Shown here in pieces: positions 1 through 18,216 of a stretch of DNA of 64,000 nucleotides. Made by a program: the position numbers and the translations under genes. Where the stretch lies: positions 62,270 through 126,269 of the IMG/VR virus record IMGVR_UViG_3300020448_000002; one strand, 5' to 3'. Under the pieces are notes generated by a model. The model had not been told where the DNA came from, did not search any database, and saw only the letters and a program-made list of their open reading frames with translations. This stretch comes from a virus. Position 1 is the first letter of the stretch. Each line of letters begins with the position of its first letter.

Positions 1-3000
1 AATATTAGTGCTATTGCAAAATACTCTGACACTAGATTTGTTTTAGGTGGTTTTACTAATACTAACTCTGGTAATCCATTTGATGCTTATATTGCTGTTG
101 TAGACACACTTGGTAACTTTGCTGTTAAGAGAAAGATTACTTCTGTAAATGTTTCTGAAAAAGTTACAGATTTACTTGTAAATGGAACTGACATATACTA
201 TACACTAGAAATTGCTACAAGTCCTAATGCAACAAGCGTTGACACAGGTATTGGTAAAGCAACTGTAGGTACTAGTGCAATTACTCTTGTTTGGACTAAG
301 CAATTAACTAATACACTGTATTCATTCATGGATACAAGTCTTACTGTTGATGAGTTTAGTGAACTATACCTTACTGCTACAACAAGACTTAAAGCAGATA
401 ATACAACTAAAGATGGTTTCTGGATTGGTAAACTTAATACAGAAGGTGTATTCCTTTGGAATTATCGTTATGCAGTAACTGGTGGATACACTGTTAATGT
501 TGCTAAGAGAACTCATATTGATATATTTGGCGATCTTAACATTGCTCTTAACAAATATCAAAATACAGATGGTGAATTAACTGTTGATGTAATTAAAGTT
601 GGTTATAACGGTATTATTAAATCACAGACAAATAATAAATTTAATCTTAATAATGTTGAAGGTGTAACTGCACATACTTTATTCCCTGATAGTTCTGGTG
701 ATGTTCATGTATATGGTCAGACTTCTTGGAATAGAAATGAACTTCTAATACCATTTACAAGTGGTGCAACTACAGATGTTACAGGACACTATACAGCAAC
801 GTTTGTAGGAGATGGAAACTCACTTCAATATGACACTTCTAATGGATATGCAAAATTACTAGGAAAAGACTCTACTACTCCTAGTACTTGGGTAAATTCA
901 GTTATACAAGTTAATGGATCAGATTTAACAACTAAAATGACTGGCGACTGGACTATTGAGTTCATGTTGTTTAAAGATGCTGCTAATAACAATAATACAC
1001 ACTCTCAAACACAACAAACCCTAATAGCAATAGGTGATGCAACCTTATCTACTGGTGGTCTATGGTTGTATTATGATATTGCATCTGGAGAGATGCAGTT
1101 AGTTGTTACTGCAAATGGAACTGCACTTAACTCTGCATCAGGTTCACTACAATCTACAGTTACAACAATGTTTGCCGATAATACTTGGCAATTTGTTGCA
1201 CTTACTAAATCTGCAGGTCAATTTACAGCATATGTTAATGGTATACAAGTTCTTCAAGGAACTATTGATAATACTGCATTCCAGAATCAAAATCTATACA
1301 TTGGTAATATTCCTGGTAAGAGTGGAACATTAAATCAATTCCGTTCTAATGAACAAGGTCAATATCATGTAGATAATCTTCGTGTTAGAAACAGAGCTGT
1401 TACTCCTACAGTTCCTAATGATGTTACTAACTATCCTATTGCAGGTGAGTTTAGTGAAGGATTCACATGGACTGATACATCATGGTTCTCTACTTACACT
1501 AACAAATATGATTATATTGATTATGTTGGTTGGGGTTTAAAAGTTGATAAAAACTCTGATGCTGCAAGACTTGGAACTCAAACTGTTCAAACTAACACAC
1601 AAGTTGGATTTGTTAGAACTGCTATTGCAATACAAACAGGTTCAGAATTAACTGTTAATAATACTGGATTTGGATTAGCAGAAGCAGGATTCCAAAACTT
1701 AGACTTTGATGATGCTGATACAACAATGACTCAAGATTCTGATTCATTAACTTATGTTCAAGATGTTTGGAGTTCTAGAACTGCTACTGTTCCTTCACCA
1801 GGTTCTCAAAAACTAAGAGTTACTGCAGTTGTTAAAGACAGATACTACTTTAAGGTTACACCTACAATCAAGATTGATAATATTCAAGAACTTACTCTAA
1901 ATCAGCAGTTTAGATTTACTACAGGAACAAAATTAGTATTAAGAAGTTCATCAGGATCATTCATTAATAGTGGATACATTATTAGACAAAATTCTGTAGG
2001 TAATAAAATATATCTTGCTGTTAATAATAATGCTTGGTCAAATGATCTTAATACTGGTGAATTAAGTACAGAACAGTTTAATGAGCAAAGCACTTATGGA
2101 ATTGTAGGTCCTATACCCGCAGATATTAATGAACTTATATTTACATTCCCATTATTAAACAATACTACACCTGGTACATTTGATATTGATTTAAACAATT
2201 TCAATCACCCAGAAGGAGGTTCAAATAATCTTGATGAATTAACTAACTTTAAACCTTATACTGATGATGATTACTCTATAAGAATTGATGAAGTATCTGG
2301 TGGTTCACCTTATATTGTTGGATCTGTTGTTAATATTAACTCTGGTGATATTAGTTTCAATGCTGCATATACAACTGCACAAATTATTAATTTAACTGGT
2401 GTTCTTAAGATTACTTTAGTAGCAACACTTAAGAAGATTATACAAGTAACTGGTGTTGCTAATAGTGATGAAGTTTATATTGTTACTGGAAATAGTCATT
2501 ACCTTACTGAAGGTGAAATGGTTAATATTGATGGTAACCCATCACAAACTGTTGATAGTGTAGTTTATGATGAATATGATGGTGCTTTCCCAGTTCATAC
2601 TGTTGTAAGTCCTGTTGAATTTACATATAAGTTACCTTCTGCTGCAATAACTGCACCAGCTACAAGTTCTGGAAGTGTTAATATCTACGTTAAGTCACCT
2701 GTTCTTAAAATGTATTATGGACATCAATATCTCTTTGATGTTAGTCATTCTTCTATGGCAGGTGGTAACTTATCATTCTCTAAAGATAATCTCTACAAAC
2801 TAGAATACTCATTTAACTCTATTGAAAGAGTAGGTACACCTGGTATTACTGGTCAAGGTGTTGCAAATCCTACTGTTAAATTAAAAGTTGATTCTGATAT
2901 TGTTACTAATATTTCTTATTACTTTGACCCATCTAGAACAGGTGATGATTCTCCTGTTATTAAAGCTAGTTACTTAGACGTTGTTAATTCACCTTACGTA

Positions 3001-6000
3001 GGTAATTTTACAATTAGTTCTACATCTGGTGCAACTATTACTCGTGGTGCAGATACATTCAAATTCCCACTTGCTAATGAACCAGAAGGTATTGCTGATG
3101 TTATTAATACATCTTACAGCACTAGTTCATTAAAAGCAGTTGGTTCTATAAGTGATATTCGTATTGTTAATGGAGGTGGTTTCTATACTAGACTGCCAGT
3201 TGTTACAACTATCCAGTCATCTAGACAAATCGAGAGAGTTCAAATTGATTCACCAGGTACTGAATATGCTGTAGGTGTTTATAATAGTGTTCCTATTGCA
3301 GGTGATGGAGAAGGTGGATTTGTTTCGATTACTGTTGCTGATGGAACTGATGATGAAGGAGTAACTATTCCTGGTCAGATACAGTCTGTTGTTGTTACAT
3401 CACCAGGTAAAGGATATACTACTGCAAGTATAGATGTTGAATCAATATCAGGTATTCTTGGAGCAGGTTTAACAGGTTCTGGTGTTGATTTGAATGTTGT
3501 TATTCCTCCTGCAGGAACAGGTGCTTCTATCTTTACTAAAGGAACTAAAGTTGGTAAAATTAAGAAATTACAGAACAACAACTTTGGATATGATTATCCT
3601 CATGATTATACTTTACGTCCTGAGATTTCATTCCCGATTAACGCACAGTTAACATCTACAAGTATTCTAGACAGTATTACAGTTACAGATCCAGGTTCTG
3701 GATATTCACAAGCACCAACCGTTGTTATTACTGGTGGTGGTGGAGCAAATGCAACTGCTGAAGCATCAATTAAGAATGGTCGTTTAGATGATATTATTGT
3801 TAAAGATCCAGGCTCAGGTTACTCTTCTGCTCCTACTGTTGCATTAAGATCATCCTTTAACTATGTTGTTAACCTTGACTTAGGATTACTACAATTTGCT
3901 TTCCCACATGGTATTGTAAATGGTTCTGAGGTTACCTTAACAGTTACTGATACTGGTGATGGTGCTGAGTTCCCATTAGCAGCAGGTGCTATTGGTCGTT
4001 TGAACTCTACTAACACATATTATGCTATTGCAGGTACTGCTAATTCTCTAGAAGAAAACCAGTTAAAGATTGCTATTACTGCTGCTAACGCTGCATTAGG
4101 AGATTCAATATCATTTGTTAACGCAGGAACAGGTCGTCAAACAATATTAACTGAATCATTTGGTGGTGCTGCTACTGCAAACGTTATTACTTCTACATTC
4201 TTAGAAGGTGAACTTGTTTATCAAGGTGATAGTTTAGACGCTGCAACTGCTAGTGGATATGTTTCTACTAACCAAGGTTGGCAGGTAGGACCTAGAATTA
4301 TTAAGATTGTTGATTACACTGGAAACTTTAATGCTAACGAAAGAATAACAGGTGTTATTTCTAAATCTTCTGGTGTTATAAGTGATCTTAAGATTGCTCG
4401 TGGTGTTCTTGAAATTGGTTCTATTACTAAAACAACTGGTCAATTTATTGATGACATCGGTAAACCATCTGAAATTATTCAGAAGATTCAAGATAGTTAC
4501 TATTATCAAGATTTCTCATATGCTGTTAAGTCTGCTGTTTCTATTGGTGAATGGAAAGAGATATTACTTAAGAACGTTCACCCTGCATCATTTAAAGTAT
4601 TTGGTGAATTAAATCTATCCGATTATGGTCAAATTCCTAATAAGGAAACTGATTTCCAGATAACAAAAGCTGTTGAATTAGCAAGAGAAGCAATTGTACC
4701 TAACATTCAGAGTTTCTCTCTAGTTGAACCAGTATATTCACAGTTTAATAACTCAGAAGTATTATTCAGACAGAAGAGATTAACATCTTCTGAGAACATT
4801 TTGACTTCTGTTGTTCAGCGTATTGATGATATATCAAATGAATTTGATGGAGTTAAAACACAATTCCAATTAAAAGTTAATGGTGAGAACGTAGTTGCTA
4901 ATGCTAACCAGTTAATGATCATCTTAAATGGTGTTGCTCAAACTCCTGAGACATCATTTAATATTCAAGGTGATTCTATTGTATTCAGTCAACCACCACA
5001 ACCACCTGCAAGTATTAAGTATGTAAACGTTACTATCGAACAGATTACTATATCCGTTCTTGAATTTACTAATATTAGTGGAATATTCCCAATCAAGGGA
5101 AATACAATGACTGGACAGACTTCTGGAACTAGATTTACTGTTACAACTGTTGTTGGTCAAACTGTTCAAGGATTCTTTGTAGAAGGAACTGCATTCCTTG
5201 CAGATGAATTAGTAAGTAATAGTGCTACTGGATTTATTGCAAACTATGCATCAGTATCAACTCTTTCAAATCTTGGATTATTTGTATTTGGAGAGCAGGT
5301 TTCAAACCTTACTGGAGAGACTGCTAAAGTTGAAGCAATTAACTTAGCAGGTGGTTCTGAAGCTCCACTTGGTCAATTACGTTATGGTATAGGTCCTTCA
5401 ACTGCATCAGTTGAAGTTGTAGCAGCAAAAACAGTTTCTACTGATCCTGATACAGCTCCTGTTGCAGGAACATTTACTGTAAGTGGTAATTATCAGATTG
5501 GTTCTGAAATTGTAACTGTAACTAATATTACTACTAACAATGACTCAGTTACATTAGAAATAACTAGAGGTCAATTAGGTACTACAGCAGCAACACAGGC
5601 AGAAGATGGTCCTGTATATGCAACCACAGTTCTTGTTAATGACAAATTAACTTTAAGTAAAACTACTGGAACATATCAGTCTACACCTGGTTTATTTGAT
5701 CTTGCTCTTAATGATGTTATTATCGGTGCTCAGTCTGGTGTAGTTGCAAGATTGACTGCTACATCAACATATCAAGATCCTACAACTAATGAGTTTATTG
5801 GTCAGGTTAATATTTCAGAAGGATCTTCATTCTTTGGATTACTATTCAACAGAGTTACATCAATTACATATCCAAATATTGTTCTAGATGATATTTCATT
5901 ATCAACAATTAGTGTTGTTGACTATACAGACTACGTAACAGATATTGATTCTCAATTCCCTGCTAACGAATTTATAAGTCAAATTGTAATTCCTTACGAT

Positions 6001-9000
6001 AATGCTTCTGGCAAGTTATCTGTAGGAGAGAAAATTAGAAATTATAAACTTGATTATGGTAATAATGTTGGAACATTTAATAGTGGTGAATCTGGTAAGT
6101 CTAGAAAACTATCATTTAAAGATAAGGTAGGAACTGGTCTATTTTCTACAGGTGATACAATAAGAACTAGAGATACTAAAGCAGAAGTAATTGGATTTAA
6201 TTTCTCAGGTAATACAATATATCTTGGTAAGATTGGTAGATCACTAAGAGGTGGTGCTGACTATCATCAATTTAACTTCTCTGGTAGTGCTCAATTAGAT
6301 ACTTCAATTAAGAAATTTGGAGATTCATCATTACAACTTGATTTAGCAACAAGTGATTATATTCAAATTCCTGCATCATCTGAATTTACTCGTGGTACAG
6401 GTGATTATACTATTGAATTCTGGGTTCGTTTAGATGCAGTATCATTAGCAGATACTAAGACTCTACTTGATATGAGAACAAGTGCTACTGAAGTTGCACT
6501 TAGAATTTACTTACAAGCAGCACAAGTTCGTGTTAATGTTAATGGTTCAGATATAGCAACTTCTGGTGGAAATGCTCTAAACAATAATGTTTGGTATCAT
6601 CTTGTAATTCAAAGAACTGGAACTACTCTTAAGATTATATCTAATGGAGTTGAGATTGGAACTGGAACAGATAGTAGTAACTATACATTGGATAGACCAA
6701 TCAGAATAGGTGCAGATTTATCTGGTCTTAATCCTATAACTGCTCATATTGATGAGTTTAGATATTCTACAGTTTCACGTTACGATACATTACCATTTAC
6801 TTCTCCTAATGGTATTTTCCAAGGAGATACTGATACTAAAGTATTATGTCACTTTGATGGTGCTGATGGTGCAACTAAGACTGAAGATTGGTCTGGTGGT
6901 GAATCATTTACTAAGGGTGAATATGTTAATAATGATTCTATATTAACAACATATAGTTCAAATCCAACTGCTGCTCCTGTAGGATTTAATACTAAGAGTC
7001 ACAGATATATTAACGCTGCAGATTTATTGTTAATGAACAAGGAATACCTTGCTCAAGAAACAGTTTATATTATGAAAGAAGTATTCCCTGCACATAGTGT
7101 TAAGGGTAGTGAAGTTGATTGTGAAGATGATGTAAGAGATGTTGTTGATGCTATTGTAGAAGATTTACGTAATGGTAGTAATCATCATATGTGGAAAGCA
7201 GCTTCATACTATGTTAATAGAGAAGTCAATCCAATTCAAATTGTAAACGTAGAAGATGATGTCTCTATGACAGTCTATGTTTATGAAATATTAGATAAAC
7301 TTGCTAAGTATATTGTTAATAATGTTCCTTGGAGTACTCAAGGTGATCATGGTGTAACACAAAAATTTGACACTTCTATTACATTTGATGGTTATACAAC
7401 TCAAACATTAACTAAGTTTACACCAACAGCAATCGACTATCATCCATCAATGGGTGACATGGAAATAACAGCTGCAAGTCATGGACTCGCGGCCCCTAGA
7501 ACTATAACAGCAACAGACTCAGGATACACTGCTACCACTGGTGTTTTGACGATTCAATCTGTTGGGCACAGTCTAGAAACTGGGGACAGAATTAAGTTTG
7601 AACCTAATTCTATTACCATGACTTGTACTTGTGATGGTAATACAGTATCACAGAGTTATCCTAGAGATGATGATCCTGCAAACCAAGGCTGGTTGGAGGT
7701 ATCAAAGATTGATAATGACAACTTTAGTGTAAATGTTGGAACATCTCCAACAGTCAACTTTACTGCAACTGCAGCAGATTATGATAGTAATACTGGTTTC
7801 TTAACTATGGACATTGGTGACAATGACCTAAGACCAGGCAGTAAGTATACTGTTTCTAACGCTGCATATAATCCTACTAGTGGTGTAATGACAGTAAGTA
7901 TTGGTAACGATCAATATAATGTTATTGATGCTGATTACAGTCCTCTAAGTGGAGATTTAGAAATCTTTGTTATGTCACATAATCTAAAAACAGGACAGAA
8001 AGTTAAGATTGCTAATGATGGTCTTACATTCAGATGTTCTCAAGATGATTATGCTACTGATCACCCATATCCAAGAGCAACTGACCCTGCACGTAATACA
8101 GCATTAGAAGTTATTCATGTAACTGATACATCATTCACTGTAAACGTTGGTAAGTCTCCTATAGTTACTTACGATGTTTCTAATGCAACATTCAATCCTA
8201 ATACAGGTGATATGGAGTTGACTATTGGAAATCATAGTTTGGCTTCAGGTACTTCTATTAGAATAGCAACTCAAAGTATTGGATTTACATGCACATATGG
8301 TGCAGGTGTTCACTACTATCCAAGACCTCTAATTGATGAGCACGTTCCAACTAATGTAGCATACAATCCAACAACAGGTGTAGTAACATTTACTGTTACT
8401 CAAGGACATGGAATTAAGAATGGTGATAAAGTTAAGATTCCTGATTATACACTTACATTCACATGTGACAAAGATAATAATGCAACTGAACACAGATATC
8501 CTAGACCTTATGATCCTATTAGTGATAAATGGATTCCAGTAAGTAATGTTCAAACAACATCATTCGATGTTCAAGTATTAGATAATGCTCCTTCAACAAA
8601 TACATCTACTCATACCTTTGTAAGTTTTACAGGTGTAATTCAACAGAAACGTGATAAATCATTTGAACAATCTGTTGCAATTACTGGTACAACTGGAACA
8701 ACTATTACTCTTAATGTTGGTATTTCAAGTAATACAACAACTCATACATATTCAACTTCTAAAGCAGGTGCTGTAATTACTGGTGGTAATTATAAGCATA
8801 AGTTTAGATCTGCAGTTGATAATGCTATAACAGTAGAGCATGGATTATATGTTGGTGATAGAGTCATGTTTGATAGAGACTCACTAACATTTACATGTCT
8901 TGAAGATAGTAATGCTACTGAGCACACATATCCAAGAATTACAGATCCTTATTATAATAAGTGGTTACCTATTTCTAATGTAACTCATACAACATTCGAT

Positions 9001-12000
9001 GTTCAAGTATTGAGTTCTACCCCTTCTACTAACCAAACTGCTCATACATTTGTTCGTGCTAAAGTTAATGGTTTAACAAGATCTGGTGAAACACTAAAAC
9101 TTGCTAAAGATGCATTATCATTTACATGCTCACAAGATAATGATGCTACTGTTCATTCTTATCCTAGAGTTGATGATTCTGTTTATAATACTGCTATTCC
9201 AATTTGGAGTAATGGTAGCACTAAGATGACTGCTCAAAGTGCAACTTATAATACTGCAGAAGGATTATTAATTATTACTATACTGAATCATGGTTTAACA
9301 GTTGGAACTGAAATTAGATTAGAAAATAATTCTCTTGTCTTTACATGTGCTAAAGATGGCAATAAAACAGAGCATTCATATCCAAGACCTAAAGATCCAT
9401 ATGCTGCTAGATGGTTAAGAATTAAAGCGGTTACTGATCATACATTCACAGTGTTTATTGGTGAAGCAAGTTCTACAGGTCAATTTGCTCATACATTTGT
9501 AAGAGCAGTTAAAGATGGTATTATCAAACGTGATAACACTGTTACTGTTAACGTTGGTGCTACTCCAACTAAGGCGTATACTCCATCTGCTGCAACTTAT
9601 AATGCTAGTACTGGTGCTTTAGAATTAAATATTGGATCACATAGTTATCCTGCTCCAACACAACATACACCAACTGATGTTGCTTACAATCCTGTTAGTG
9701 GTGTAATGACTCTGACTATTGCAGGTCATAACTTCTCTAATGGTGAAAAAATTAAGATTGCTGATAATGGTATTAAATTAAGTTGTCCTTATGGTGGTGC
9801 AACTGGAACTGCTGCACAGAAAGATTATCCACGTTCTACTGACCCAGTTAGCAATAAATGGATTCCAATATTCAACGTAACTACAGATACTTTTGATGTT
9901 CAAGTTTTAGATTCAACTCCTTCAACTAACGTTGATACTCATACATTTGTAAGTGCAGTTACTAACTGTGTTAGCAAGGCAAATTACACTGTTAAACTTG
10001 CTCCTGATTCATTACTAATGACATGTGATATGGATAGTGGTGCTACTAAACATGTATATCCAAGATCTAATGTTGCTACTCATACTCCATCTACAGGTAC
10101 AAGTTACAACCCAGTAACAGGTGCTCTTACAGTTTCAATTCCTACTGAATCATTTACTGCTAGTGCTGCAAATTATAATGTTACAACAGGTGCTTGTGTA
10201 TTAACAATATCTCAGAATGCAGGATCATATAATGTTACTGGTGCAACTTATTCACCTTCTGTTGGAACTTTAGTTCTTACACTTGGATCACATAATTTAA
10301 CAACTAATGACAGAATTAAAATTACTCCAGAATCACTTAGATTTACTTGTGATTATAATAATGATAATAATACAACTGTTCATCCTTATCCTCGTGCTGC
10401 AGGTGCATACAACTCAACAAATTCAAAAGCAGATTACGCTTATGATACATGGTTAGACATTAGTGCAGTTACAGGAACAACAATTACTGTAAACGTTAAC
10501 GGTGGTCAAGGTGCTATTACTGATATTAGTAACCATACATTTGTTGGTGCACTTGATGGTGCAGTTCAAGTTGGTCATGGTATCGTACCTGGCAATAAGG
10601 TTAAACTTGCTCCTAACTCACTAACATTTACTTGCACATTAGATGGTAACTCTGCACAGAAATCTTATCCTAGAGCAACAGGTGCTAATACAACAAGTGG
10701 TGCTGACTATGCTTATGATAAGTGGCTCAGAGTTATGGATGTTGGAGATAATACAATAACTGTTAACTTGAATGGTGGTCAAGGTGCCATCTCAGATACA
10801 TCAGCACATACATTTGTTTCTGCTACTGCTAATGGTATTACCCTTGGACACGGTATGGTTGCTGGTACACCTATTAAGATCAAAGATGGTGGCGTAATAT
10901 TCAGATGTGCTCATGATAATAATGCTACTTTACATCCTTATCCTAGATCAACTGACCCTGCAAGTGATAAGTGGTTGTTTATTAAGAATGTAAGTGATAC
11001 TCAATTTGAAGTTGATATTTTACAAGGAACAACTCCTACAAATACTACAACACATACCTATGCAGGTTCTATTGATAATTGTATTGTTCAAGGAGATCCA
11101 CTTGTTGCTCAAGCAATTCCGATTGATGCAGTTACAGGTAATACTATTACTATCAATGCTTTAGATGGATATACACCTTCATTTACACCAAACCATACTT
11201 TAGATTCTGTAGCAACATCTCAGTTTACACCAACTAATGCAGTTTACAATGGAACTACAGGTCTAATGACCATAACAGTTCAAACTGCTAACTTCCAACC
11301 TTCTACTGTTGCTTATAATGCGATAACTGGTGAGATGCAAATGACTATTGGAACTCATAGTTTGGCAGTTGGAGAAGAAATATTAATTGCTCCTAATTCA
11401 CTAACATTTACTTGTGATTTTAATGGAGATGGAAATACTACAAATAAAACATATCCTAGAGCAACAGGTGCTGCAACTCCTAGCGGTGCAGACTTTGCTT
11501 ACAATAATCAATTAGTAATTACAGACACCACAGCAACAACTATTACTGTAAACGTAAATGGTGGTGGAGGAGCAATTACTGATACAACCAACCATGTATT
11601 TGTATCGGCATTAGCAGATGCAGTCAGTGTTTCACATGGAATCAAGAACGGTGAAAAAATTAAGATTGCTGATAATGGTATTACATTTACTTGTACTCAT
11701 GATAGTAATGCTACAAACCATCCATATCCAAGAGTAACTGATCCTGCTAGTGGTAGATGGTTAGATGTTCATAACGTCACTAATACTACTTTCGATGTTC
11801 AAGTATTAGATGAAATTCCTTCTACAAATACTACAACTCATACATTTGTTTCTGCTACAACTAATGCGATTACAAGAGCAATAATTTCAACTGGTGGTAA
11901 CTATAAGCATAAGTTTATATCTGGTCTTACAAACGGTGTTAGAACTGGTGGTGACTATACTCATACATTTGTTTCTGCTACTTCTAACGGTATACATGTT

Positions 12001-15000
12001 GCAGGTGATTCAGTTTACATTGATACTAATTCACTAAGATTTACTTGTTCTCAAGATGATCATTTAACACAACATGATTATCCACGTCCTACTGATCCTG
12101 CAGCTAAGCATGTAATGGAAGTTAAGGCTAAAGATGATAATAGATTTGTAATTAACGTTGGTAAATCTCCACAAGACAAACGTTATGATCACTTATTTGT
12201 TAGTGGCGATGCTAATTCTATCACTAAGTCTAAGTATGTAATTACAAATTGTTCTGACGTTTACACAACTACAAACAACTTAATTGATATTCTTAGAGAT
12301 ACAATAACTCAAGCTGCTTTACCATCTCCTGTAGATCATCTTGCAACTATTACTGATCTTCTTCCAGTAGATGAATTTGTTGGTGGAACAATTCATTCAT
12401 ATCTTGAAGTACCATTCAAAATTACATATGAAGATGATGCATCAGAAATGGTATACACAGATAGAATTGATGTATTCAGTCGTTACAGATTCCGTGATGC
12501 TGCTAATTTAATTCGTCAAAATACAGGTGCTATTGTAGATAAAGCATCTTATGATATGTTAATTCGCTACCCTGCTCTTTATCAGGATATGCCTAGAAAC
12601 CAAGGTGGTACATCTACAGATGGAATCGAGCGTTGTAAGACTGACCTTACACAGGTTTGTGGTGGAGTTGCTAATGATATAGAAAATGGTGGTAATAAGA
12701 ATGTTGTTACTGCTGCAGGATTCTACCTTGGTCAAAATAATGAAATTCAACATATTAGATTACAGTTACCACAATCAATATATGTTCATAACCGTTTAGT
12801 ATACTACTTAAAGCAAGCAATAGATGGAAGTTTAACAACTGATAATACAGAAAATCTTATTGTTGGAGATTGGGGTATTACAAATGATGATAGTGTAACA
12901 ACTTATGATGTATATGATGCATCTTATGACGCAGCAAGTGGTGATTTAGTGATGACTCTTGCATCAAATACTGGAACATTTAGTGTTAGTGGTGCAGTCT
13001 ATAATCCAACATCAGGTGATTTAGTTCTTACAATCGGAACTCATACTTTAACAACTAATGATAAGGTTGGAATTGCTGAGGAATCATTAGTATTCACTTG
13101 TGATTACAATGGTAATGGTAATCAAACTCAGAAGAGATATCCTAGATCATTTGGTGCTGGTACAACAAATGGTGCTGATTATGCATACAATCAATTCCTT
13201 GATATTACAGCAGTAAATCAATCTGGTGGAACAATCACTGTTAACGTTAATGGTGGTCAAGGTGCTATTACAGATACCACAACTCATAACTTTGTTGTTA
13301 CTCCATCTGCTACAAATGCAGTTACTGTTGGACACGGATTTACTGCAGGAGATAGTTTACAGATTGCTAATGAGGGATTAACATTTACATGTTCAATGGA
13401 CGGTAATGTTGCTAATAAAACATATCCTCGTGCAACTGATCCTGCATATGGTAAGTCACTTACAATTACAAATGCTACTGCTACAACAGTAACTGTTAAT
13501 GTAGGAGCTTCTCCAGAAGTTAAGTATACTCCAACATTCGCAACATATACTGCTACAACTGGTGTATTAGTTCTTACTATTAGTAACCATAATTTAGAAG
13601 TTGGTCAACCAATTAAGATTAATCAAGGTGCATTGAAGTTTACTTGTGCAATGGATGGAAATGAATCTATCAAATCTTATCCAAGAACTAGTGATCCATT
13701 CTACAACCAACCTATTGATATTACTGCAACTACAGCAGATACTATTCAGTTAAACGTTGGGCAGAGTCCATTAGTTTTACACAACGTTTCTAATGCTACT
13801 TACGATCCTACTACAGGTGTAATGGTATTGACAATAGGAGCTCATACTTTGACTGCAGGTACTAGCATTAAACTTGCTACTGAATCATTAGTCTTTACTT
13901 GCACATTAGATGGTAATACAATTCAGAAATCATATCCTCGTGCTACTACTGCTAATACAGGAAGTGGTGCTGATTATGCATACGATACTGCAATCAATAT
14001 TGATTCTGCAGATACAGCAGCAGGAACTATTACTATCAACGTAAATGGTGGACAAGGTGCTATATCTGATACATCAGCACATACATTTGTTTCTGCTAAT
14101 GCAGGTGCTGTAAGATCAGGTGGTGATTATGTTCATACATTCCATTCTGCAGAGACTGAATGTGTAATCTCAGGTGGTGAATATACTCACGTATGGGCAG
14201 GTGGTACTGCTACCGATGTAGTTAGTGTTATCGGTGATTGTGCAGATGTTAAGAGTAATATCGAATCATTAATTAATACAGTTAATGATATTATTGCACC
14301 TACAGGTCTAGATTATGATACTGCAGGTAATAGACTTTACTTTAACAGAGAACTTATTGCTTCAGATGTAACTTCTAGAATGTTAACTGAGTTTACATAT
14401 CAAGCAGGTCCTACAACATACTTTGCATTCCAATTTGGTGGAACTAATATAACAGCAGCAGAATTCCAAGCAGATGTTGAGGTAGTTATTCAGAATCTAA
14501 TATCTGATTTACAGACTGGTGGTAATAATAGTTCTATCAGGGCACTTGAAGAAACATATCTCAATGCAGATGGAACACTTCATAGAATTGAAGATATGCT
14601 TTTACCAACCGTTTATGGTATGGAAGTTCTTAAGGAAGCAGGTAGAGAAGCAATTAGAAATAACATATACAATGCATCAGAAAATATTCCTTTCGGTGGA
14701 TATGTAACAAACGCTGCTCAAACACCTTTCAGAGATGATTTAGAGACTGTAGATATTGATCAAGTAATTGGAGATTGGAATAATCTTCTTGATCATGTAA
14801 TTGAATTCTTCTCACCTGGCAAAAAAGAGGCTAGGAATGGTATGAAGAATATTCTTTATAATGTAAACTATTATAAGAATGAATTAAACAACCTTGTTAA
14901 TACTCAGTTTGGTAATGGTGCTTGGGTTTATAATGATTTTGTTGATGAGTTAGTTGGAAATATAGTTCAAGACTCTGTTACAACTCCTATAGATCATAAG

Positions 15001-18000
15001 ACTACAGCAAGAAGACTAACTCTTACAGGTGTAAGTGGAGAATTTATAGTTGATCAAGTTATAACTGCTAATGGTGGTGGATACGCTAAGATTCTTGAAT
15101 GGGATAGTAAAGATAGACATTTATATATCGGACCTTTCCTTAGCGGTACAATTTCTGCAGGTGAAACTATTACTGGTAGCACTGCAGGTGCTGCGACTAT
15201 TGCAACTGGAGGAGTTGGTATTCCATTTGATTGGTATACACGACCATCAAACGTTGAAATTCTTAGAAATGCAAGATTAATTAGTTCTACTGTTCAAGAT
15301 CAATTAATAGGTCAAAACGTTGGTTACAATTATCCAGAAGATTTATCTAGTGGTAATACACTTACTGAAGTAACTATATCTACTGATAGTGCTGTTGCAC
15401 CTGATAACGCAGTTACTGCTGATAAGATTGTTGCTTCAACTACTGTTGGTGAACATTTGTTGTTCAGAAATTATAGTTTAAGTGCATTTGAAACATTTGA
15501 CGGTGGCACAGTTAGATTTGACTCATCAACAGAAACATTTGATACTGGACAAATAGGAACTACTGAATCACAGCAATTTACTTACTCTGTATTCTTAAAA
15601 GCAGGTGAGTATAGTAAAGTTCGTTTCGAGATGGCTCTTGATAGAGATACTACTCAAAGACAGCAATTATTCTATGATATTGATTTAACAAATGGAACTA
15701 CAGGTAGTATCTTCCAACCTCAAGGTGGTCTTACAGTAGATGCAACTGGAGTGATTCCTTATGGTGGAGGATGGTATAGAGCATACGGAACAATTACATG
15801 TTCATTTGGTTTCTCTCAACTTCGTCAACAAATTCAAATTAAGAATGCTACTGGTCAAACTAGTTTTGCAGGTAATGCATCTGATGGTGTCTTTGCATGG
15901 GGTCTAAAACTTACTAAAGGAACTATTGATCCTTATGCTGCTACAAGTGGAGATGTATTCTACGCTGATACTGAATACAATATTAAGACATATACAATCG
16001 ATAGATTAGAAGAATGGATGTATGATGCATTGAAAGATCAACTTGTTAATCCTTCTCCTAGTGCAGCGTTTACACCTTTCTTCAGCGATAGTGCATCTAC
16101 TTATTATCATCCAGATTCAATTCAAAGATTAGTAAGATATAGTTTAGAAATTGTTCGTAATCAATTATTAAATAGCACTTACTATACTGATATTATTGTT
16201 CAGAATGGAATAACTGTTCCAACTAAAGATTATGGAACATTCGACCTTCCAGTTGCTCTTGCAGGTGGTCTTGATGGTGCTGATTACTTATATGGTTTAG
16301 AAAGTGGATCATATGCTGAATTAGAGAAAGTTACTATAAACGAAGGTGAAGTTGTTCAAGTATATCAAAGATTCCGTATTGATAGTAATATTGTTGATGG
16401 TCCTTACTTCATGAATGAAGTTGTTCAAAAACAAGGAGACTCAACTGTTACAGGTGTTGTATATGGATTCTATGAAGATGATAACTTTAAGTATCTTGAT
16501 GTTGCAGTTACTGGTGGAACATTCGCAGTATTAGATTATGTTGTTGGTGCAACTAATACAACAACTGCACAAATTAATGCTATTGAAGATAGAATACAAA
16601 TCACTGATCTTGAAGGAGAATTTACTGATAACATTCCATTCAAGGGATATGATACAGGTGAAACTGCAATCCCAACTGGATTCTTAAAAGCACAAGCTGC
16701 TGTTACTGACAATAGTGGTGGTAAATTAACTGTTGATACTGAAACTCTAATAGGTACATTTGAAACATCTGCTGTAATATATCCTGAGCAATCAAAATTA
16801 TTCTTAGATGTTTCTAGGTATGAAGGATTAGATGTATTGATTGGTTATAGAATTTCTTCTGCAGGGCATACAAGAATTGGTATTACAATTCAAAATAACA
16901 AGAACGTATTTACAGTTGGTAATAAACTCAATAAGATTACTAACGGTGTTATTGATCCTAATAACTATGGTTATATTACTGAAGTTGATATTGATAATAA
17001 TATTATTTACTACATCTTAGCAGCAGGATCTATTACTAATGGTGATCAAGTTGGTGACTTTGGACCTGCACCTGATCCACTCAATCCATTAGGACACGCA
17101 GTAATTAATACTAAGTTAGATGTTGCAGGAGCTGCTAGTGCAGTAATTCAAGACATCAAAGATGTTGGTGTTAACAAACGATTCTATCTAACAAATGTAA
17201 CAGGAACATTCAGTGGTAGAGATGGAATCTTTGGTAAGGATAATTATAAAGCATCAGTTATAACTAAGACTGATCTTAGAGGACGTGTTGAACGTGCATT
17301 CAGAGGATTTGATGGAACACAAACTAACTTTAAGTTAACCATCTCAAACGGAACCAAGTACTTCCCAGATCCTGCAGGACATATGTTGATCTTCATCAAT
17401 GGTGTTCTACAACCACCAGGTTCAGCAAATGCTTATACAGCATTCTCAGATAACATCCAGTTTACTGAAGCACCTGATCTTGGAGCATCATTCACAGGAT
17501 TCTATGTTGGTAAACTAAGACAATTAGATGATATATCATTTGAGTTTGATTCATTACGTCAGTCATTCAACTTGAAACGTGACGATGTGTTCTACTCATT
17601 GACGCTGACTGATGGTGTTCAATCTTCTACAATCTTACCAGAAAATAATATTATTGTTTCACTGAATGGTGTTATACAGGAACCAGGCGTTGGTTTTGAA
17701 CTAGTTGGTTCTAGAATAATCTTCTCTGAAATTCCTCGTGTAGGATCAACATTCGTTGCATTCTCATACGTTGGTTCTGAAGCAGACGTTGATGCTGCAG
17801 AAGTTGTACCACCAATAGAAGTGGGTGACTTCATTGACATCCAAGGTGAGACCGAAGATAGACAGGTTGCTGTTATCGAATCTTCTAACTCCTTGATTAC
17901 ATTTGATTATCTTGGATCTGTATTTGGACAGAATGCTTCAGCATCTGCTACTCTCACATCTGGAACTATTGATAGAGTTCAAGTAACATCTGGTGGATCT

Positions 18001-18216
18001 GGTTATACAACTAGACCAAATGTAAGAGTTGACTCCATATCTGGATTCGATGGAAACATTCGTGCACTAGTTGGTGTTGCAGGTGTTGAAATTAGTAATG
18101 TTGGTTCTGGATATCAAAATCCTATAATCAATGTTGAGACTTCAGTCCCAGATGACTGGACTGCTCCAGACTTAAGTCTATACGGAGAAGAGGGAGTTGA
18201 CCCCGAAACCCCATAA
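1..18216 (+). CDS. gp7: Giant baseplate wedge initiator-like virion protein (gp7-like), 5'-truncated; at least 6,071 codons in the window
   Basis: Frame 1 is open from base 1 (NISAIAKYSDTRFVLGG...) through the track start at 328 to TAA at 18214-18216. Contains the gp7-type motif KIQDSYYYQDFSYAVKS...WKEILLKNVHPASFKVFGE (~4480-4610), beta-propeller-like repeats, two LamG-like domains, GSGY repeats and nested YPR repeats. Lies upstream of gp8, as in cyanomyophages. Confidence 0.75.
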   Translation, partial: NISAIAKYSDTRFVLGGFTNTNSGNPFDAYIAVVDTLGNFAVKRKITSVNVSEKVTDLLVNGTDIYYTLEIATSPNATSVDTGIGKATVGTSAITLVWTKQLTNTLYSFMDTSLTVDEFSELYLTATTRLKADNTTKDGFWIGKLNTEGVFLWNYRYAVTGGYTVNVAKRTHIDIFGDLNIALNKYQNTDGELTVDVIKVGYNGIIKSQTNNKFNLNNVEGVTAHTLFPDSSGDVHVYGQTSWNRNELLIPFTSGATTDVTGHYTATFVGDGNSLQYDTSNGYAKLLGKDSTTPSTWVNSVIQVNGSDLTTKMTGDWTIEFMLFKDAANNNNTHSQTQQTLIAIGDATLSTGGLWLYYDIASGEMQLVVTANGTALNSASGSLQSTVTTMFADNTWQFVALTKSAGQFTAYVNGIQVLQGTIDNTAFQNQNLYIGNIPGKSGTLNQFRSNEQGQYHVDNLRVRNRAVTPTVPNDVTNYPIAGEFSEGFTWTDTSWFSTYTNKYDYIDYVGWGLKVDKNSDAARLGTQTVQTNTQVGFVRTAIAIQTGSELTVNNTGFGLAEAGFQNLDFDDADTTMTQDSDSLTYVQDVWSSRTATVPSPGSQKLRVTAVVKDRYYFKVTPTIKIDNIQELTLNQQFRFTTGTKLVLRSSSGSFINSGYIIRQNSVGNKIYLAVNNNAWSNDLNTGELSTEQFNEQSTYGIVGPIPADINELIFTFPLLNNTTPGTFDIDLNNFNHPEGGSNNLDELTNFKPYTDDDYSIRIDEVSGGSPYIVGSVVNINSGDISFNAAYTTAQIINLTGVLKITLVATLKKIIQVTGVANSDEVYIVTGNSHYLTEGEMVNIDGNPSQTVDSVVYDEYDGAFPVHTVVSPVEFTYKLPSAAITAPATSSGSVNIYVKSPVLKMYYGHQYLFDVSHSSMAGGNLSFSKDNLYKLEYSFNSIERVGTPGITGQGVANPTVKLKVDSDIVTNISYYFDPSRTGDDSPVIKASYLDVVNSPYVGNFTISSTSGATITRGADTFKFPLANEPEGIADVINTSYSTSSLKAVGSISDIRIVNGGGFYTRLPVVTTIQSSRQIERVQIDSPGTEYAVGVYNSVPIAGDGEGGFVSITVADGTDDEGVTIPGQIQSVVVTSPGKGYTTASIDVESISGILGAGLTGSGVDLNVVIPPAGTGASIFTKGTKVGKIKKLQNNNFGYDYPHDYTLRPEISFPINAQLTSTSILDSITVTDPGSGYSQAPTVVITGGGGANATAEASIKNGRLDDIIVKDPGSGYSSAPTVALRSSFNYVVNLDLGLLQFAFPHGIVNGSEVTLTVTDTGDGAEFPLAAGAIGRLNSTNTYYAIAGTANSLEENQLKIAITAANAALGDSISFVNAGTGRQTILTESFGGAATANVITSTFLEGELVYQGDSLDAATASGYVSTNQGWQVGPRIIKIVDYTGNFNANERITGVISKSSGVISDLKIARGVLEIGSITKTTGQFIDDIGKPSEIIQKIQDSYYYQDFSYAVKSAVSIGEWKEILLKNVHPASFKVFGELNLSDYGQIPNKETDFQITKAVELAREAIVPNIQSFSLVEPVYSQFNNSEVLFRQKRLTSSENILTSVVQRIDDISNEFDGVKTQFQLKVNGENVVANANQLMIILNGVAQTPETSFNIQGDSIVFSQPPQPPASIKYVNVTIEQITISVLEFTNISGIFPIKGNTMTGQTSGTRFTVTTVVGQTVQGFFVEGTAFLADELVSNSATGFIANYASVSTLSNLGLFVFGEQVSNLTGETAKVEAINLAGGSEAPLGQLRYGIGPSTASVEVVAAKTVSTDPDTAPVAGTFTVSGNYQIGSEIVTVTNITTNNDSVTLEITRGQLGTTAATQAEDGPVYATTVLVNDKLTLSKTTGTYQSTPGLFDLALNDVIIGAQSGVVARLTATSTYQDPTTNEFIGQVNISEGSSFFGLLFNRVTSITYPNIVLDDISLSTISVVDYTDYVTDIDSQFPANEFISQIVIPYDNASGKLSVGEKIRNYKLDYGNNVGTFNSGESGKSRKLSFKDKVGTGLFSTGDTIRTRDTKAEVIGFNFSGNTIYLGKIGRSLRGGADYHQFNFSGSAQLDTSIKKFGDSSLQLDLATSDYIQIPASSEFTRGTGDYTIEFWVRLDAVSLADTKTLLDMRTSATEVALRIYLQAAQVRVNVNGSDIATSGGNALNNNVWYHLVIQRTGTTLKIISNGVEIGTGTDSSNYTLDRPIRIGADLSGLNPITAHIDEFRYSTVSRYDTLPFTSPNGIFQGDTDTKVLCHFDGADGATKTEDWSGGESFTKGEYVNNDSILTTYSSNPTAAPVGFNTKSHRYINAADLLLMNKEYLAQETVYIMKEVFPAHSVKGSEVDCEDDVRDVVDAIVEDLRNGSNHHMWKAASYYVNREVNPIQIVNVEDDVSMTVYVYEILDKLAKYIVNNVPWSTQGDHGVTQKFDTSITFDGYTTQTLTKFTPTAIDYHPSMGDMEITAASHGLAAPRTITATDSGYTATTGVLTIQSVGHSLETGDRIKFEPNSITMTCTCDGNTVSQSYPRDDDPANQGWLEVSKIDNDNFSVNVGTSPTVNFTATAADYDSNTGFLTMDIGDNDLRPGSKYTVSNAAYNPTSGVMTVSIGNDQYNVIDADYSPLSGDLEIFVMSHNLKTGQKVKIANDGLTFRCSQDDYATDHPYPRATDPARNTALEVIHVTDTSFTVNVGKSPIVTYDVSNATFNPNTGDMELTIGNHSLASGTSIRIATQSIGFTCTYGAGVHYYPRPLIDEHVPTNVAYNPTTGVVTFTVTQGHGIKNGDKVKIPDYTLTFTCDKDNNATEHRYPRPYDPISDKWIPVSNVQTTSFDVQVLDNAPSTNTSTHTFVSFTGVIQQKRDKSFEQSVAITGTTGTTITLNVGISSNTTTHTYSTSKAGAVITGGNYKHKFRSAVDNAITVEHGLYVGDRVMFDRDSLTFTCLEDSNATEHTYPRITDPYYNKWLPISNVTHTTFDVQVLSSTPSTNQTAHTFVRAKVNGLTRSGETLKLAKDALSFTCSQDNDATVHSYPRVDDSVYNTAIPIWSNGSTKMTAQSATYNTAEGLLIITILNHGLTVGTEIRLENNSLVFTCAKDGNKTEHSYPRPKDPYAARWLRIKAVTDHTFTVFIGEASSTGQFAHTFVRAVKDGIIKRDNTVTVNVGATPTKAYTPSAATYNASTGALELNIGSHSYPAPTQHTPTDVAYNPVSGVMTLTIAGHNFSNGEKIKIADNGIKLSCPYGGATGTAAQKDYPRSTDPVSNKWIPIFNVTTDTFDVQVLDSTPSTNVDTHTFVSAVTNCVSKANYTVKLAPDSLLMTCDMDSGATKHVYPRSNVATHTPSTGTSYNPVTGALTVSIPTESFTASAANYNVTTGACVLTISQNAGSYNVTGATYSPSVGTLVLTLGSHNLTTNDRIKITPESLRFTCDYNNDNNTTVHPYPRAAGAYNSTNSKADYAYDTWLDISAVTGTTITVNVNGGQGAITDISNHTFVGALDGAVQVGHGIVPGNKVKLAPNSLTFTCTLDGNSAQKSYPRATGANTTSGADYAYDKWLRVMDVGDNTITVNLNGGQGAISDTSAHTFVSATANGITLGHGMVAGTPIKIKDGGVIFRCAHDNNATLHPYPRSTDPASDKWLFIKNVSDTQFEVDILQGTTPTNTTTHTYAGSIDNCIVQGDPLVAQAIPIDAVTGNTITINALDGYTPSFTPNHTLDSVATSQFTPTNAVYNGTTGLMTITVQTANFQPSTVAYNAITGEMQMTIGTHSLAVGEEILIAPNSLTFTCDFNGDGNTTNKTYPRATGAATPSGADFAYNNQLVITDTTATTITVNVNGGGGAITDTTNHVFVSALADAVSVSHGIKNGEKIKIADNGITFTCTHDSNATNHPYPRVTDPASGRWLDVHNVTNTTFDVQVLDEIPSTNTTTHTFVSATTNAITRAIISTGGNYKHKFISGLTNGVRTGGDYTHTFVSATSNGIHVAGDSVYIDTNSLRFTCSQDDHLTQHDYPRPTDPAAKHVMEVKAKDDNRFVINVGKSPQDKRYDHLFVSGDANSITKSKYVITNCSDVYTTTNNLIDILRDTITQAALPSPVDHLATITDLLPVDEFVGGTIHSYLEVPFKITYEDDASEMVYTDRIDVFSRYRFRDAANLIRQNTGAIVDKASYDMLIRYPALYQDMPRNQGGTSTDGIERCKTDLTQVCGGVANDIENGGNKNVVTAAGFYLGQNNEIQHIRLQLPQSIYVHNRLVYYLKQAIDGSLTTDNTENLIVGDWGITNDDSVTTYDVYDASYDAASGDLVMTLASNTGTFSVSGAVYNPTSGDLVLTIGTHTLTTNDKVGIAEESLVFTCDYNGNGNQTQKRYPRSFGAGTTNGADYAYNQFLDITAVNQSGGTITVNVNGGQGAITDTTTHNFVVTPSATNAVTVGHGFTAGDSLQIANEGLTFTCSMDGNVANKTYPRATDPAYGKSLTITNATATTVTVNVGASPEVKYTPTFATYTATTGVLVLTISNHNLEVGQPIKINQGALKFTCAMDGNESIKSYPRTSDPFYNQPIDITATTADTIQLNVGQSPLVLHNVSNATYDPTTGVMVLTIGAHTLTAGTSIKLATESLVFTCTLDGNTIQKSYPRATTANTGSGADYAYDTAINIDSADTAAGTITINVNGGQGAISDTSAHTFVSANAGAVRSGGDYVHTFHSAETECVISGGEYTHVWAGGTATDVVSVIGDCADVKSNIESLINTVNDIIAPTGLDYDTAGNRLYFNRELIASDVTSRMLTEFTYQAGPTTYFAFQFGGTNITAAEFQADVEVVIQNLISDLQTGGNNSSIRALEETYLNADGTLHRIEDMLLPTVYGMEVLKEAGREAIRNNIYNASENIPFGGYVTNAAQTPFRDDLETVDIDQVIGDWNNLLDHVIEFFSPGKKEARNGMKNILYNVNYYKNELNNLVNTQFGNGAWVYNDFVDELVGNIVQDSVTTPIDHKTTARRLTLTGVSGEFIVDQVITANGGGYAKILEWDSKDRHLYIGPFLSGTISAGETITGSTAGAATIATGGVGIPFDWYTRPSNVEILRNARLISSTVQDQLIGQNVGYNYPEDLSSGNTLTEVTISTDSAVAPDNAVTADKIVASTTVGEHLLFRNYSLSAFETFDGGTVRFDSSTETFDTGQIGTTESQQFTYSVFLKAGEYSKVRFEMALDRDTTQRQQLFYDIDLTNGTTGSIFQPQGGLTVDATGVIPYGGGWYRAYGTITCSFGFSQLRQQIQIKNATGQTSFAGNASDGVFAWGLKLTKGTIDPYAATSGDVFYADTEYNIKTYTIDRLEEWMYDALKDQLVNPSPSAAFTPFFSDSASTYYHPDSIQRLVRYSLEIVRNQLLNSTYYTDIIVQNGITVPTKDYGTFDLPVALAGGLDGADYLYGLESGSYAELEKVTINEGEVVQVYQRFRIDSNIVDGPYFMNEVVQKQGDSTVTGVVYGFYEDDNFKYLDVAVTGGTFAVLDYVVGATNTTTAQINAIEDRIQITDLEGEFTDNIPFKGYDTGETAIPTGFLKAQAAVTDNSGGKLTVDTETLIGTFETSAVIYPEQSKLFLDVSRYEGLDVLIGYRISSAGHTRIGITIQNNKNVFTVGNKLNKITNGVIDPNNYGYITEVDIDNNIIYYILAAGSITNGDQVGDFGPAPDPLNPLGHAVINTKLDVAGAASAVIQDIKDVGVNKRFYLTNVTGTFSGRDGIFGKDNYKASVITKTDLRGRVERAFRGFDGTQTNFKLTISNGTKYFPDPAGHMLIFINGVLQPPGSANAYTAFSDNIQFTEAPDLGASFTGFYVGKLRQLDDISFEFDSLRQSFNLKRDDVFYSLTLTDGVQSSTILPENNIIVSLNGVIQEPGVGFELVGSRIIFSEIPRVGSTFVAFSYVGSEADVDAAEVVPPIEVGDFIDIQGETEDRQVAVIESSNSLITFDYLGSVFGQNASASATLTSGTIDRVQVTSGGSGYTTRPNVRVDSISGFDGNIRALVGVAGVEISNVGSGYQNPIINVETSVPDDWTAPDLSLYGEEGVDPETP
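7414..12237 (+). repeat. Nested array of 15 copies of a ~105-118 aa module (Y-x-P-x-x-G ... FTC-x-x-D ... YPR ... VNV ... HTFV) within the giant ORF
   Basis: 15 opening hairpin motifs, 15 C...YPR cores and 15 closing H-T/K-F strands counted in the translation. Uninterrupted copies lie at ~8332-8649, 9217-9531, 9658-9981, 10219-10572 and 11284-11631. Confidence 0.85.
12898..14229 (+). repeat. Second nested array of 4 copies of the same YPR module
   Basis: Four FTC...YPR cores, with stacked closing strands HTFVSANAG / GGDYVHTFHSA / GGEYTHVWAG at the end. Confidence 0.8.

Follow-up and report, generated by a model that had tools for sequence, protein, structure and literature searches.

Predicted recursive self-insertion of a small β-barrel domain in a giant gp7-like protein of a marine cyanophage

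Introduction

Nesting of protein domains is usually one level deep. A deeper kind, recursive self-insertion, is already known, mainly from the Si3 region of the cyanobacterial RNA polymerase β′ subunit, which is treated in two sources. In the first of these, HABAS domains are described as 'inserted into other HABAS domains', and nine additional HABAS domains are reported (PMC11515920). The second, a 2026 survey of 2.7 million classified domains, gives the eight-domain, six-level Si3 of Prochlorococcus marinus rpoC2 as an extreme example of nesting (PMC13114784). The subject of the present study is a comparable arrangement in a giant open reading frame (ORF) found in 64,000 nucleotides (nt) of viral DNA, representing positions 62,270 to 126,269 of IMG/VR record IMGVR_UViG_3300020448_000002 (this whole stretch is referred to below as the window). 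Positions 7414–12225 of the window (aa 2363–3966 of the ORF product, 1604 aa) comprise 15 copies of one domain of approximately 100 aa, of which five are contiguous and ten are split. It is very likely that this β-barrel domain of about 100 residues has been copied repeatedly into surface loops of its own earlier copies, all within a single polypeptide.

The nest resembles Si3 of RpoC2 (HABAS/SBHM, CATH 2.40.50.100) in that one small β family is recursively inserted into its own copies, with branching and with discontinuous parents, and in that the whole tree appears itself to be an insertion in a host element. The settings differ, Si3 lying in the trigger loop of the polymerase and the present nest in a phage virion/baseplate protein. 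The folds also appear to differ, as the best matches of the nest domain are the FCCH domain of E1 and endosialidase barrels. No HABAS or Si3 chain was present in the four lists of structural matches obtained with VIA-align, and an Si3 chain (8emb_D) was returned only by Foldseek, with an expectation (E) value of 3.4e-3 and a template modelling (TM) score of 0.08. The phage proteins have more copies and greater depth than Si3, with 15+4 copies and seven levels here and with homologues that, by the parser described below, reach as many as 30 copies and a depth of 11 levels, and the shape of the tree varies between related phages. The original prediction, which a model had made from the letters of the window, suggested that such a parsing had not been described before. 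For this phage protein that statement stands, within the literature searched (listings and abstracts, with few subscription journals), in which no description of nesting in cyanophage gp7-like proteins was found; for the kind of architecture it does not, given what the two Si3 sources report (PMC11515920, PMC13114784).

Results

The giant ORF occupies positions 328–18216 (+ strand) of the window and comprises 5962 aa counted from the first ATG, at position 328. It contains 19 YPR motifs, of which 15 are situated within aa 2363–3970 and four within aa 4271–4536. A hidden Markov model (HMM) was built from the five contiguous copies of the nest, as the original prediction had proposed; it matched those five end to end and gave 25 partial hits with complementary profile ranges (hairpin only, hairpin to YPR, YPR to end, or closing strand only). 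A better profile, of 102 positions, was constructed from 427 distinct intact copies in the 121 giant proteins described below. Sequences were then analysed with a nested parser, a dynamic-programming aligner that fits the profile globally and in which a complete scored domain may be looped out at any position.

The parse of aa 2331–4000 yielded a single top-level domain, aa 2363–3966, enclosing all 15 copies in seven levels, with the tree 1(2(3(4(5(6(7))) 8 9(10 11(12(13))) 14(15)))). Profile positions are contiguous at all 14 breaks of the nest, and the scores of the copies' own residues ranged from 50 to 112 nats for split copies and from 84 to 106 nats for intact ones. With a copy regarded as complete when at least 90 of the 102 positions were matched, from a profile position k of 5 or lower to one of 95 or higher, all 15 copies of the nest, including all ten that are split, were complete, as were all 19 copies in the window. 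It is apparent that complete copies lie inside other copies whose parts are all retained in order, and that inserted copies are themselves hosts, over at least two levels and with branching, copy 3 having four children and copy 9 two. A linear tandem-repeat fibre of contiguous head-to-tail units was also considered as an arrangement for these repeats, and is ruled out, as only five of the 15 copies are contiguous.

These results bear out much of what had been claimed from the letters of the window, namely 15 nested copies in seven levels, five contiguous and ten split, with 15 hairpins, 15 cores and 15 closing strands that close in last-opened-first-closed order. Splicing out of the children, which had been proposed as a check, left rejoined parents that in every case in the nest cover the full profile. 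The predicted topology was correct in its overall nesting, with one branch misplaced: 14[15] branches from copy 3, as the fourth of its children, and not from copy 9, since the closing strand of copy 9 (aa ~3620) precedes the opening of copy 14. The figure of three children each for copies 3 and 9 is accordingly replaced by four and two. The six insertion loops that had been estimated correspond to six junction positions, but these fall into approximately four loop regions.

All of the copies are on the + strand. The outermost, copy 1 (7414–12225; 76 nats), consists of aa 2363–2389 (nt 7414–7494, k1–27) and aa 3893–3966 (nt 12004–12225, k28–102), and its orthologues are split likewise. Copy 2 (7501–11997) consists of aa 2392–2476 (nt 7501–7755, k1–85) and a closing strand at aa 3874–3890 (nt 11947–11997, k86–102). 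Copy 3 (7756–11940) is in four pieces, aa 2477–2501 (nt 7756–7830), 2918–2961 (nt 9079–9210), 3067–3078 (nt 9526–9561) and 3852–3871 (nt 11881–11940), which represent k1–25, 26–69, 70–81 and 82–101, respectively; its children are copies 4, 8, 9 and 14. The first of these, copy 4 (7843–9078), is formed by aa 2506–2526 (nt 7843–7905) and aa 2837–2917 (nt 8836–9078), with a break at k21/22 that holds 5[6[7]]. Within it, copy 5 (7912–8832) comprises aa 2529–2613 (nt 7912–8166, k1–85) and a closing strand at aa 2819–2835 (nt 8782–8832, k86–102), copy 6 (8167–8775) comprises aa 2614–2668 (nt 8167–8331, k1–57) and aa 2776–2816 (nt 8653–8775, k58–101), and copy 7 (8338–8631, aa 2671–2768), at the deepest level (7), is intact.

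The second child of copy 3, copy 8 (9223–9522, aa 2966–3065), is intact and inserted at k69/70. Copy 9 (9574–11217) is in three pieces, aa 3083–3107 (nt 9574–9648), 3217–3248 (nt 9976–10071) and 3590–3630 (nt 11095–11217), with breaks at k25/26 and k57/58 and with copies 10 and 11 as children. Copy 10 (9661–9975, aa 3112–3216) is intact. Copy 11 (10081–11085), broken at k21/22, is made up of aa 3252–3272 (nt 10081–10143) and aa 3507–3586 (nt 10846–11085) and holds 12[13]; copy 12 (10150–10842), broken at the same profile position, is made up of aa 3275–3295 (nt 10150–10212) and aa 3416–3505 (nt 10573–10842) and holds the intact copy 13 (10225–10569, aa 3300–3414). Copy 14 (11221–11874) consists of aa 3632–3652 (nt 11221–11283) and aa 3769–3849 (nt 11632–11874), is a child of copy 3, and is likewise broken at k21/22, where it holds the intact copy 15 (11290–11628, aa 3655–3767).

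The order of the fragments was compared with random expectation. None of 2,000,000 random orders of the 28 fragments obeyed the stack rule, whether it was applied strictly or with six profile positions of slack, and none of 2,000,000 random interleavings that preserved the fragment order of each copy was non-crossing. No domain was found by the parser in the reversed sequence.

It was of interest to compare the split copies with relatives in which the corresponding site is empty. To this end, the own residues of the 19 window copies, with children spliced out, were compared with 2920 distinct domains from other proteins and loci. Orthologues in the P-SSM4-like group showed identities of 51–52% for copy 1, 78–80% for copy 2, 66–67% for copy 3 and 69–73% for copy 9. 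The junctions in these orthologues are identical for copies 1, 2 and 9 and within one residue for copy 3, and the orthologues of all four carry simpler children; in those of copy 9 both junctions are kept and the second child is intact. Over its full length, split copy 4 shares 62–63% identity with an intact domain (L043:5478-5771, with the same situation in L047), which the copy-3 orthologue carries as its first child. When the two are aligned, both fragments of copy 4 are matched, and the intervening residues, including all of 5[6[7]], fall opposite one long gap. Similarly, split copy 11 is 54–56% identical, over both of its fragments around 12[13], to the intact L044:4705-5013, which is the second child of the copy-9 orthologue, and spliced copy 14 is 64–67% identical to intact copies elsewhere. 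The comparisons of copies 4 and 11 with intact orthologues are, at the level of sequence, direct evidence of insertion or loss. Since both fragments of each match one intact orthologue, the assignment of hairpin to body is fixed, at least historically.

Among close IMG/VR contigs (82–91% identical), eight of nine contain an identical pair of trees, and in the ninth the region runs into the contig end. A 94%-identical protein is colinear with the giant ORF product, without gaps, over 5232 aa. These two observations indicate that assembly error is not an issue.

The distribution of the domain was examined more widely. A search of giant proteins returned 390 relatives, of which the best 120 were taken for parsing together with the window protein, giving 121 in all. 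A scan of 1.84 billion representative proteins with aa 2506–2917 identified only 525 at an E value of 0.001 or lower, so the family is narrow. The 121 giant cyanophage proteins contain 1850 domains, of which 1051 are split, in top-level trees that are from one to 11 levels deep. The tree shapes differ widely, with up to 30 copies by the nested parser. The comparison of topology across gp7 homologues that the original prediction had called for thus supports it, in that nesting recurs in the 121 proteins with differing trees. Complete copies account for 977 of the 1051 split domains and 714 of the 799 intact ones, and in 59 of the 121 proteins every copy is complete. The family parse left 13 of 2295 local hits unexplained, a figure that is not relied on, as a parser of this flexibility would account for most hits in any case.

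Insertion points in the family cluster at profile positions 21–27, 57, 69–73, 81, 85 and 97–98. The conservation of key residues was 88–100% in 1039 split copies, in comparison with 96–100% in 781 intact copies. For individual positions, the fractions in split and intact copies, respectively, were 0.94 and 0.96 (Y9), 1.00 and 1.00 (G14), 0.93 and 0.97 (H23), 1.00 and 0.99 (C42), 0.95 and 0.99 (Y53), 0.92 and 0.99 (P54), 0.88 and 0.97 (R55), and 0.95 and 0.96 (D58). By this measure, split copies look as constrained as intact ones. The linkers at the junctions are short, with medians of two unaligned residues before the child and one after it (1470 junctions), and because they are so short the two ends of a child should be adjacent. 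Adjacent N- and C-termini had been proposed for the domain from the outset, and these medians support that proposal.

The near-invariant residues are a His, a Cys and YPR, at profile columns 23, 42 and 53–55, in intact and split copies. In the copies of the window, another His is visible ahead of YPR, and one more within the closing strand. The invariant His, Cys and YPR residues could represent a putative metal site or a structural clamp. In five of the giant proteins (P0046, P0048, P0056, P0062 and P0120) and at locus L031:9995-10924, there is a three-level unit whose middle copy is interrupted between FxC and YPR. This break site is rare elsewhere, and the Cys is followed by a short stretch reading H-x-Y-S-G-G. 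The topology in these homologues may be other than that read by the nested parser.

Structures were predicted with AlphaFold2 for two nested segments. The fold alignments contained only rows mapping one to one onto the query, in a plain colinear MAFFT alignment, and rows of other topology were left out (MAFFT mixed intact and split copies). The model of aa 2506–2917 (4[5[6[7]]], 412 aa), made with 34 rows, had a mean predicted local distance difference test (pLDDT) value of 87.6 and a predicted TM (pTM) score of 0.61; that of aa 3252–3586 (11[12[13]]), made with 36 rows, had values of 86.2 and 0.76. No segment of either model was below 50. Pairing of the fragments was read from the first and last aligned model residues, and from the aligned length, in VIA-align rows to PDB chains, which comprised four lists of 50 (200 rows), two per model. 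Model indices equal the aa number minus 2505 for the first model and minus 3251 for the second.

In the two lists for the first model, 30 of 50 and 37 of 50 rows covered the intact copy 7 (model ~163..272). Split copy 5 (pieces 24–108 and 314–330) was spanned by 17 of 50 and nine of 50 rows, at 21–23..331–336 with 65–85 residues aligned, and split copy 6 (pieces 109–163 and 271–311) by two of 50 and three of 50, at 107–108..313–315. In the lists for the second model, four of 50 and two of 50 rows, with Z scores of 5.0–6.0, spanned split copy 12 (pieces 24–44 and 165–254) around copy 13, at 21–23..256–259; the remaining rows (46 of 50 and 48 of 50) fell on the intact copy 13. The same contiguous PDB barrels (the FCCH domain of E1 and the K1F and phi92 endosialidase barrels) fit both an intact child and the split copies 5, 6 and 12, with Z scores of 5.0–7.9 and root-mean-square deviations (rmsd) of 2.0–4.2 Å over 65–85 residues. 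Since a contiguous barrel of 80–90 residues spans such ranges, the distant closing piece would be placed at the barrel's last strands. Each aligned range stops at the nested partner, with copy 6 ending before copy 5, and no crossed range (22..311, 107..330, 1..254 or 24..335) was observed among the 200 rows.

The two halves of copy 1 (aa 2363–2392 and aa 3891–3966), which are separated by approximately 1500 residues, were also modelled as two chains, with 11 orthologous rows each. The interaction prediction score from aligned errors (ipSAE) was 0.36, which is weak, in comparison with 0.00 for the best control. Contact agreement among the runs was at least 85%, with a partner pLDDT of at least 61. 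Of 80 solved complexes, 58 reach the mark used for ipSAE, as do two of 110 mismatched pairs; it is reached with values of 0.60 or lower by only seven of the 80 solved complexes, and by both of the passing mismatches.

The domain is, according to these models, a small β-barrel. Its best VIA-align matches were the FCCH domain of E1, followed by phage endosialidase barrels and then by FNR-type and elongation-factor-type barrels and several phage tail modules. Barrels of the endosialidase/FCCH type superpose over most of the domain (Z scores of 7.1–8.6, rmsd of 2.0–3.0 Å, 75–83 residues). A profile of seven intact copies, compared with PDB sequences, had as its best match an unrelated protein with an E value of 0.11. 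As Z scores of about 7–8 are common and no related PDB sequence was matched, the likeness is one of fold only. A Foldseek search of the PDB with the 412-aa model returned nothing convincing (best E value 9e-4, at a TM score of 0.07), and in BFVD the only matches were to fragments of giant proteins of cyanophages, under generic names. One BFVD entry matching the nested model, A0A346FK93 of Synechococcus virus S-PRM1 (E value 7.8e-14), is labelled 'Endosialidase'.

The endosialidase barrel (K1F endoNF, residues ~424–510; phi92, ~256–339) is likewise a module of a phage tail protein, of approximately 85 residues. One of the intact copies, as well as the split copies 5 and 6, could be superposed on it with rmsd values of 2.0–2.3 Å over 78–83 residues and Z scores of 7.1–7.9. 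Among these matches are residues 424–510 of the K1F endosialidase (1v0e_A) on copy 5 (Z 7.3, rmsd 2.0 Å, 78 aligned), residues 425–506 of an endo-neuraminidase NF mutant (3gvj_A) on copy 6 (Z 7.4, rmsd 2.3 Å, 80 aligned) and the phi92 endosialidase (4hiz_A) on copy 5 (Z 7.7, rmsd 2.2 Å, 81 aligned). The endosialidase barrel differs from the nest domain in being present as a single copy that is not self-nested, and no sequence similarity between the two was detected. The barrel of endoNF, which binds sialic acid, is itself an insertion in the propeller. The FCCH domain of ubiquitin E1, also a small barrel, gave the highest Z scores (7.8–8.6, rmsd 2.7–3.0 Å, 75–81 residues), which were those for the intact copies 7 and 13, and split copy 5 is among its matches as well. 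It is eukaryotic and unrelated in sequence (7–17% identity in the aligned residues), and no functional link is inferred.

A second nest, separate from the 15-copy nest and outside its coordinates, is located at 12901–14220 (+ strand; aa 4192–4631) and contains four copies in the arrangement 16(17 18(19)). Copy 16 consists of aa 4192–4212, 4335–4398 and 4616–4631, copy 17 of aa 4217–4333, copy 18 of aa 4399–4481 and 4596–4613, and copy 19 of aa 4484–4595. The flanks upstream of the two nests (window 6925–7413 and 12415–12900) are homologous, with 25% identity over 108 aa (E value 3e-9). No significant match between the downstream flanks was obtained with BLASTP; a short C-x-D-V...L-I motif is visible by eye in both. 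The upstream flanks suggest a repeated, mostly helical host unit, each copy of which would be interrupted by a nest at an equivalent place. As both nests follow homologous flanks and a similar motif comes after each, each tree looks like one large insertion in a host domain.

The reading frame of the giant ORF is open back to base 1 of the window (the feature spans 1..18216, +), and its first 1000 aa align with phrog_701 only from position 2068 of the 6136 in that profile. For these two reasons the true start of the protein is very probably upstream of the window, and the full length of the protein probably exceeds the 5962 aa encoded here by about 2000 aa. The PHROGs labels on the ORF are only broad and structural, that of phrog_701 being 'virion structural protein'. 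Genes downstream match phrog_677 (baseplate wedge / tail-fibre connector, gp9-like), phrog_708 (wedge subunit) and phrog_438 (gp8-like wedge subunit), an order that is the same as that downstream of the 7312-aa 'gp7' coding sequence in Prochlorococcus phage P-SSM4. By gene content, the ORF is situated in a baseplate wedge gene block, and its product is termed gp7-like by analogy, the label being taken from the P-SSM4 record and the gene order. The gp7 protein of T4 has 1032 aa. The giant ORF, which is likened to it on those same two grounds, is five to eight times longer.

The DNA of the nest matches only five records, all from Prochlorococcus-infecting cyanophages, with approximately 70% identity across one quarter of the nest. 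Protein comparison gave matches to 324 phage records, with names that are all Synechococcus, Cyanophage, Prochlorococcus or Marine. As the matches are all to cyanophages, the window is taken to derive from a T4-like marine cyanomyovirus. A Pfam search of the giant ORF found nothing but Laminin_G_3, outside the nests, and an NCBIfam search nothing but a spike-fibre domain near the C-terminus. The Laminin_G_3 (concanavalin-like lectin) domains are two in number, at aa ~226–360 and ~2008–2146, and fit a carbohydrate-binding theme for the giant protein. At the C-terminus of another ORF (32996–40033), window positions 38621–40030 encode five Gly/Thr-rich repeat units followed by five short, mutually similar strands; this region may be a second, unrelated nested module.

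Discussion

Several points weigh against repeated self-insertion as set out above, or limit the support for it. The structural support comes from predictions and is read from them indirectly, and the rows of the fold alignments were picked by topology with the same nested parser, so that the procedure is partly circular. Z scores were mostly below 8, values that, as the tool warns, can reflect a common arrangement. Closure as seen in the models is limited to copies 5, 6 and 12, as none of the 200 VIA-align rows spans the outermost copies 4 or 11, which is a gap and not evidence against closure. The prediction of nested constructs, which had been proposed as a check on the nesting, thus yielded nested pairing ranges for three split copies and none for these two. 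The absence of copies 4 and 11 as assembled barrels would also be compatible with an interdigitated or domain-swapped array, in which some of the hairpins or closing strands would supply the missing part of a neighbouring or crossed barrel. Same-site stacks (A11 A12 [13] BDC12 BDC11) are ambiguous in this respect from token order alone, and there is a precedent in Si3, some recursively inserted domains of which are reported to exchange secondary-structure elements or strands (PMC11515920). Swapping is nonetheless improbable: the ranges observed end at the nested partner (copy 6 at ~313–315, copy 5 at ~331–336, copy 12 at 21–23..256–259), none of the 200 rows is crossed, and for each of copies 4 and 11 the two fragments find their match in one intact orthologue.

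A further difficulty is that the parser is permissive. When the fragments were shuffled, 30 orders still yielded from nine to 14 of 15 'complete' domains, with one to seven split, and short fragments are weak when taken alone (independent E values of 1e-3 to 1e-5). Both observations would be expected if the nest were an artefact of parsing, with the hairpins and closing strands being independent small repeats or linkers among whole and truncated tandem units. For that reason, significance rests on the full balance and order and not on the detection of domains by the parser. None of the 30 shuffles equalled the real nest, with 15 complete copies of which ten are split, and the score was 1208.6 for the real order and at most 1162.5 for the shuffled ones. 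The exact 15/15/15 balance and the stack rule, which none of the 2,000,000 random orders obeyed, also argue against an artefact, as do the intact orthologues that match both fragments of split copies at 54–63% identity, the invariant residues that are equally kept in split copies, and the high pLDDT of all fragments in the models. The artefact is thus largely refuted and is considered very unlikely. Misassembled or chimeric repeated DNA, giving only an apparent nested order, is less probable still, to the point of being negligible. Repeats can confuse assemblers, and nothing specific in the window points to such an event; the copies are only ~30–55% identical as protein and too diverged to collapse, the same trees recur in eight of nine independent close contigs, and colinearity without gaps extends over 5232 aa in the 94%-identical protein.

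Each split parent keeps all parts of the domain in order, with a complete child or subtree looped out at one of a few hot-spot loops (profile positions ~21–27, 57, 69–73 and 81–86). Under repeated self-insertion, the pieces of the parent would come together around the child as a normal barrel. Because the two ends of the child would lie side by side, it would add only about three linker residues to the loop of the parent. Insertion repeated in this manner would build a tree whose own two ends stay adjacent. The 1604-residue tree would therefore start and end at nearly one point, and would act as one large insertion in a mostly helical host unit. Copies could then be gained or lost between phages while the flanking core, which has to fit the baseplate, keeps its spacing, something that a tandem array could not accommodate.

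The function of such a tree can be addressed only tentatively. It is possible, with a chance rated at somewhat below even, that it forms a compact, branched, lectin-like cluster on the periphery of the baseplate, binding host surface glycans or stiffening or shielding the wedge. Binding to glycans or to the cell surface is the leading guess, on account of the likeness to the endosialidase barrel, the location in a baseplate protein and the turnover between phages; a purely structural or shielding role for the modules is guessed to rank after it.

If the nest is as described, it would represent the deepest natural domain nesting on record, with seven levels here and, by the nested parser, up to 11 in homologues, in comparison with the six given in the survey (PMC13114784). 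The trees would be deeper and more branched than those of Si3, with a different fold and in a structural protein of a virus. If the same window does hold another nested module, unrelated to this one, that would suggest a lineage-specific mechanism or selection favouring nesting. The related loci provide natural 'before and after' pairs for the study of insertion tolerance, permissive loops and the folding of discontinuous domains. Ordinary profile searches read such proteins as whole and 'truncated' repeats, and a nested parser is needed for the correct reading.

For the phages themselves, nesting explains part of the large size of cyanomyovirus gp7-like proteins. A broader proposal, doubtful at present, is that recursive self-insertion is a general and fast mode of growth of cyanophage baseplate and fibre proteins, which would produce branched trees of 11–30 lectin-like modules that are reshaped between phages to change binding while the core is left undisturbed. 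Nesting also points to modules, possibly glycan-binding ones, that decorate the baseplate and could influence host range among Prochlorococcus and Synechococcus.

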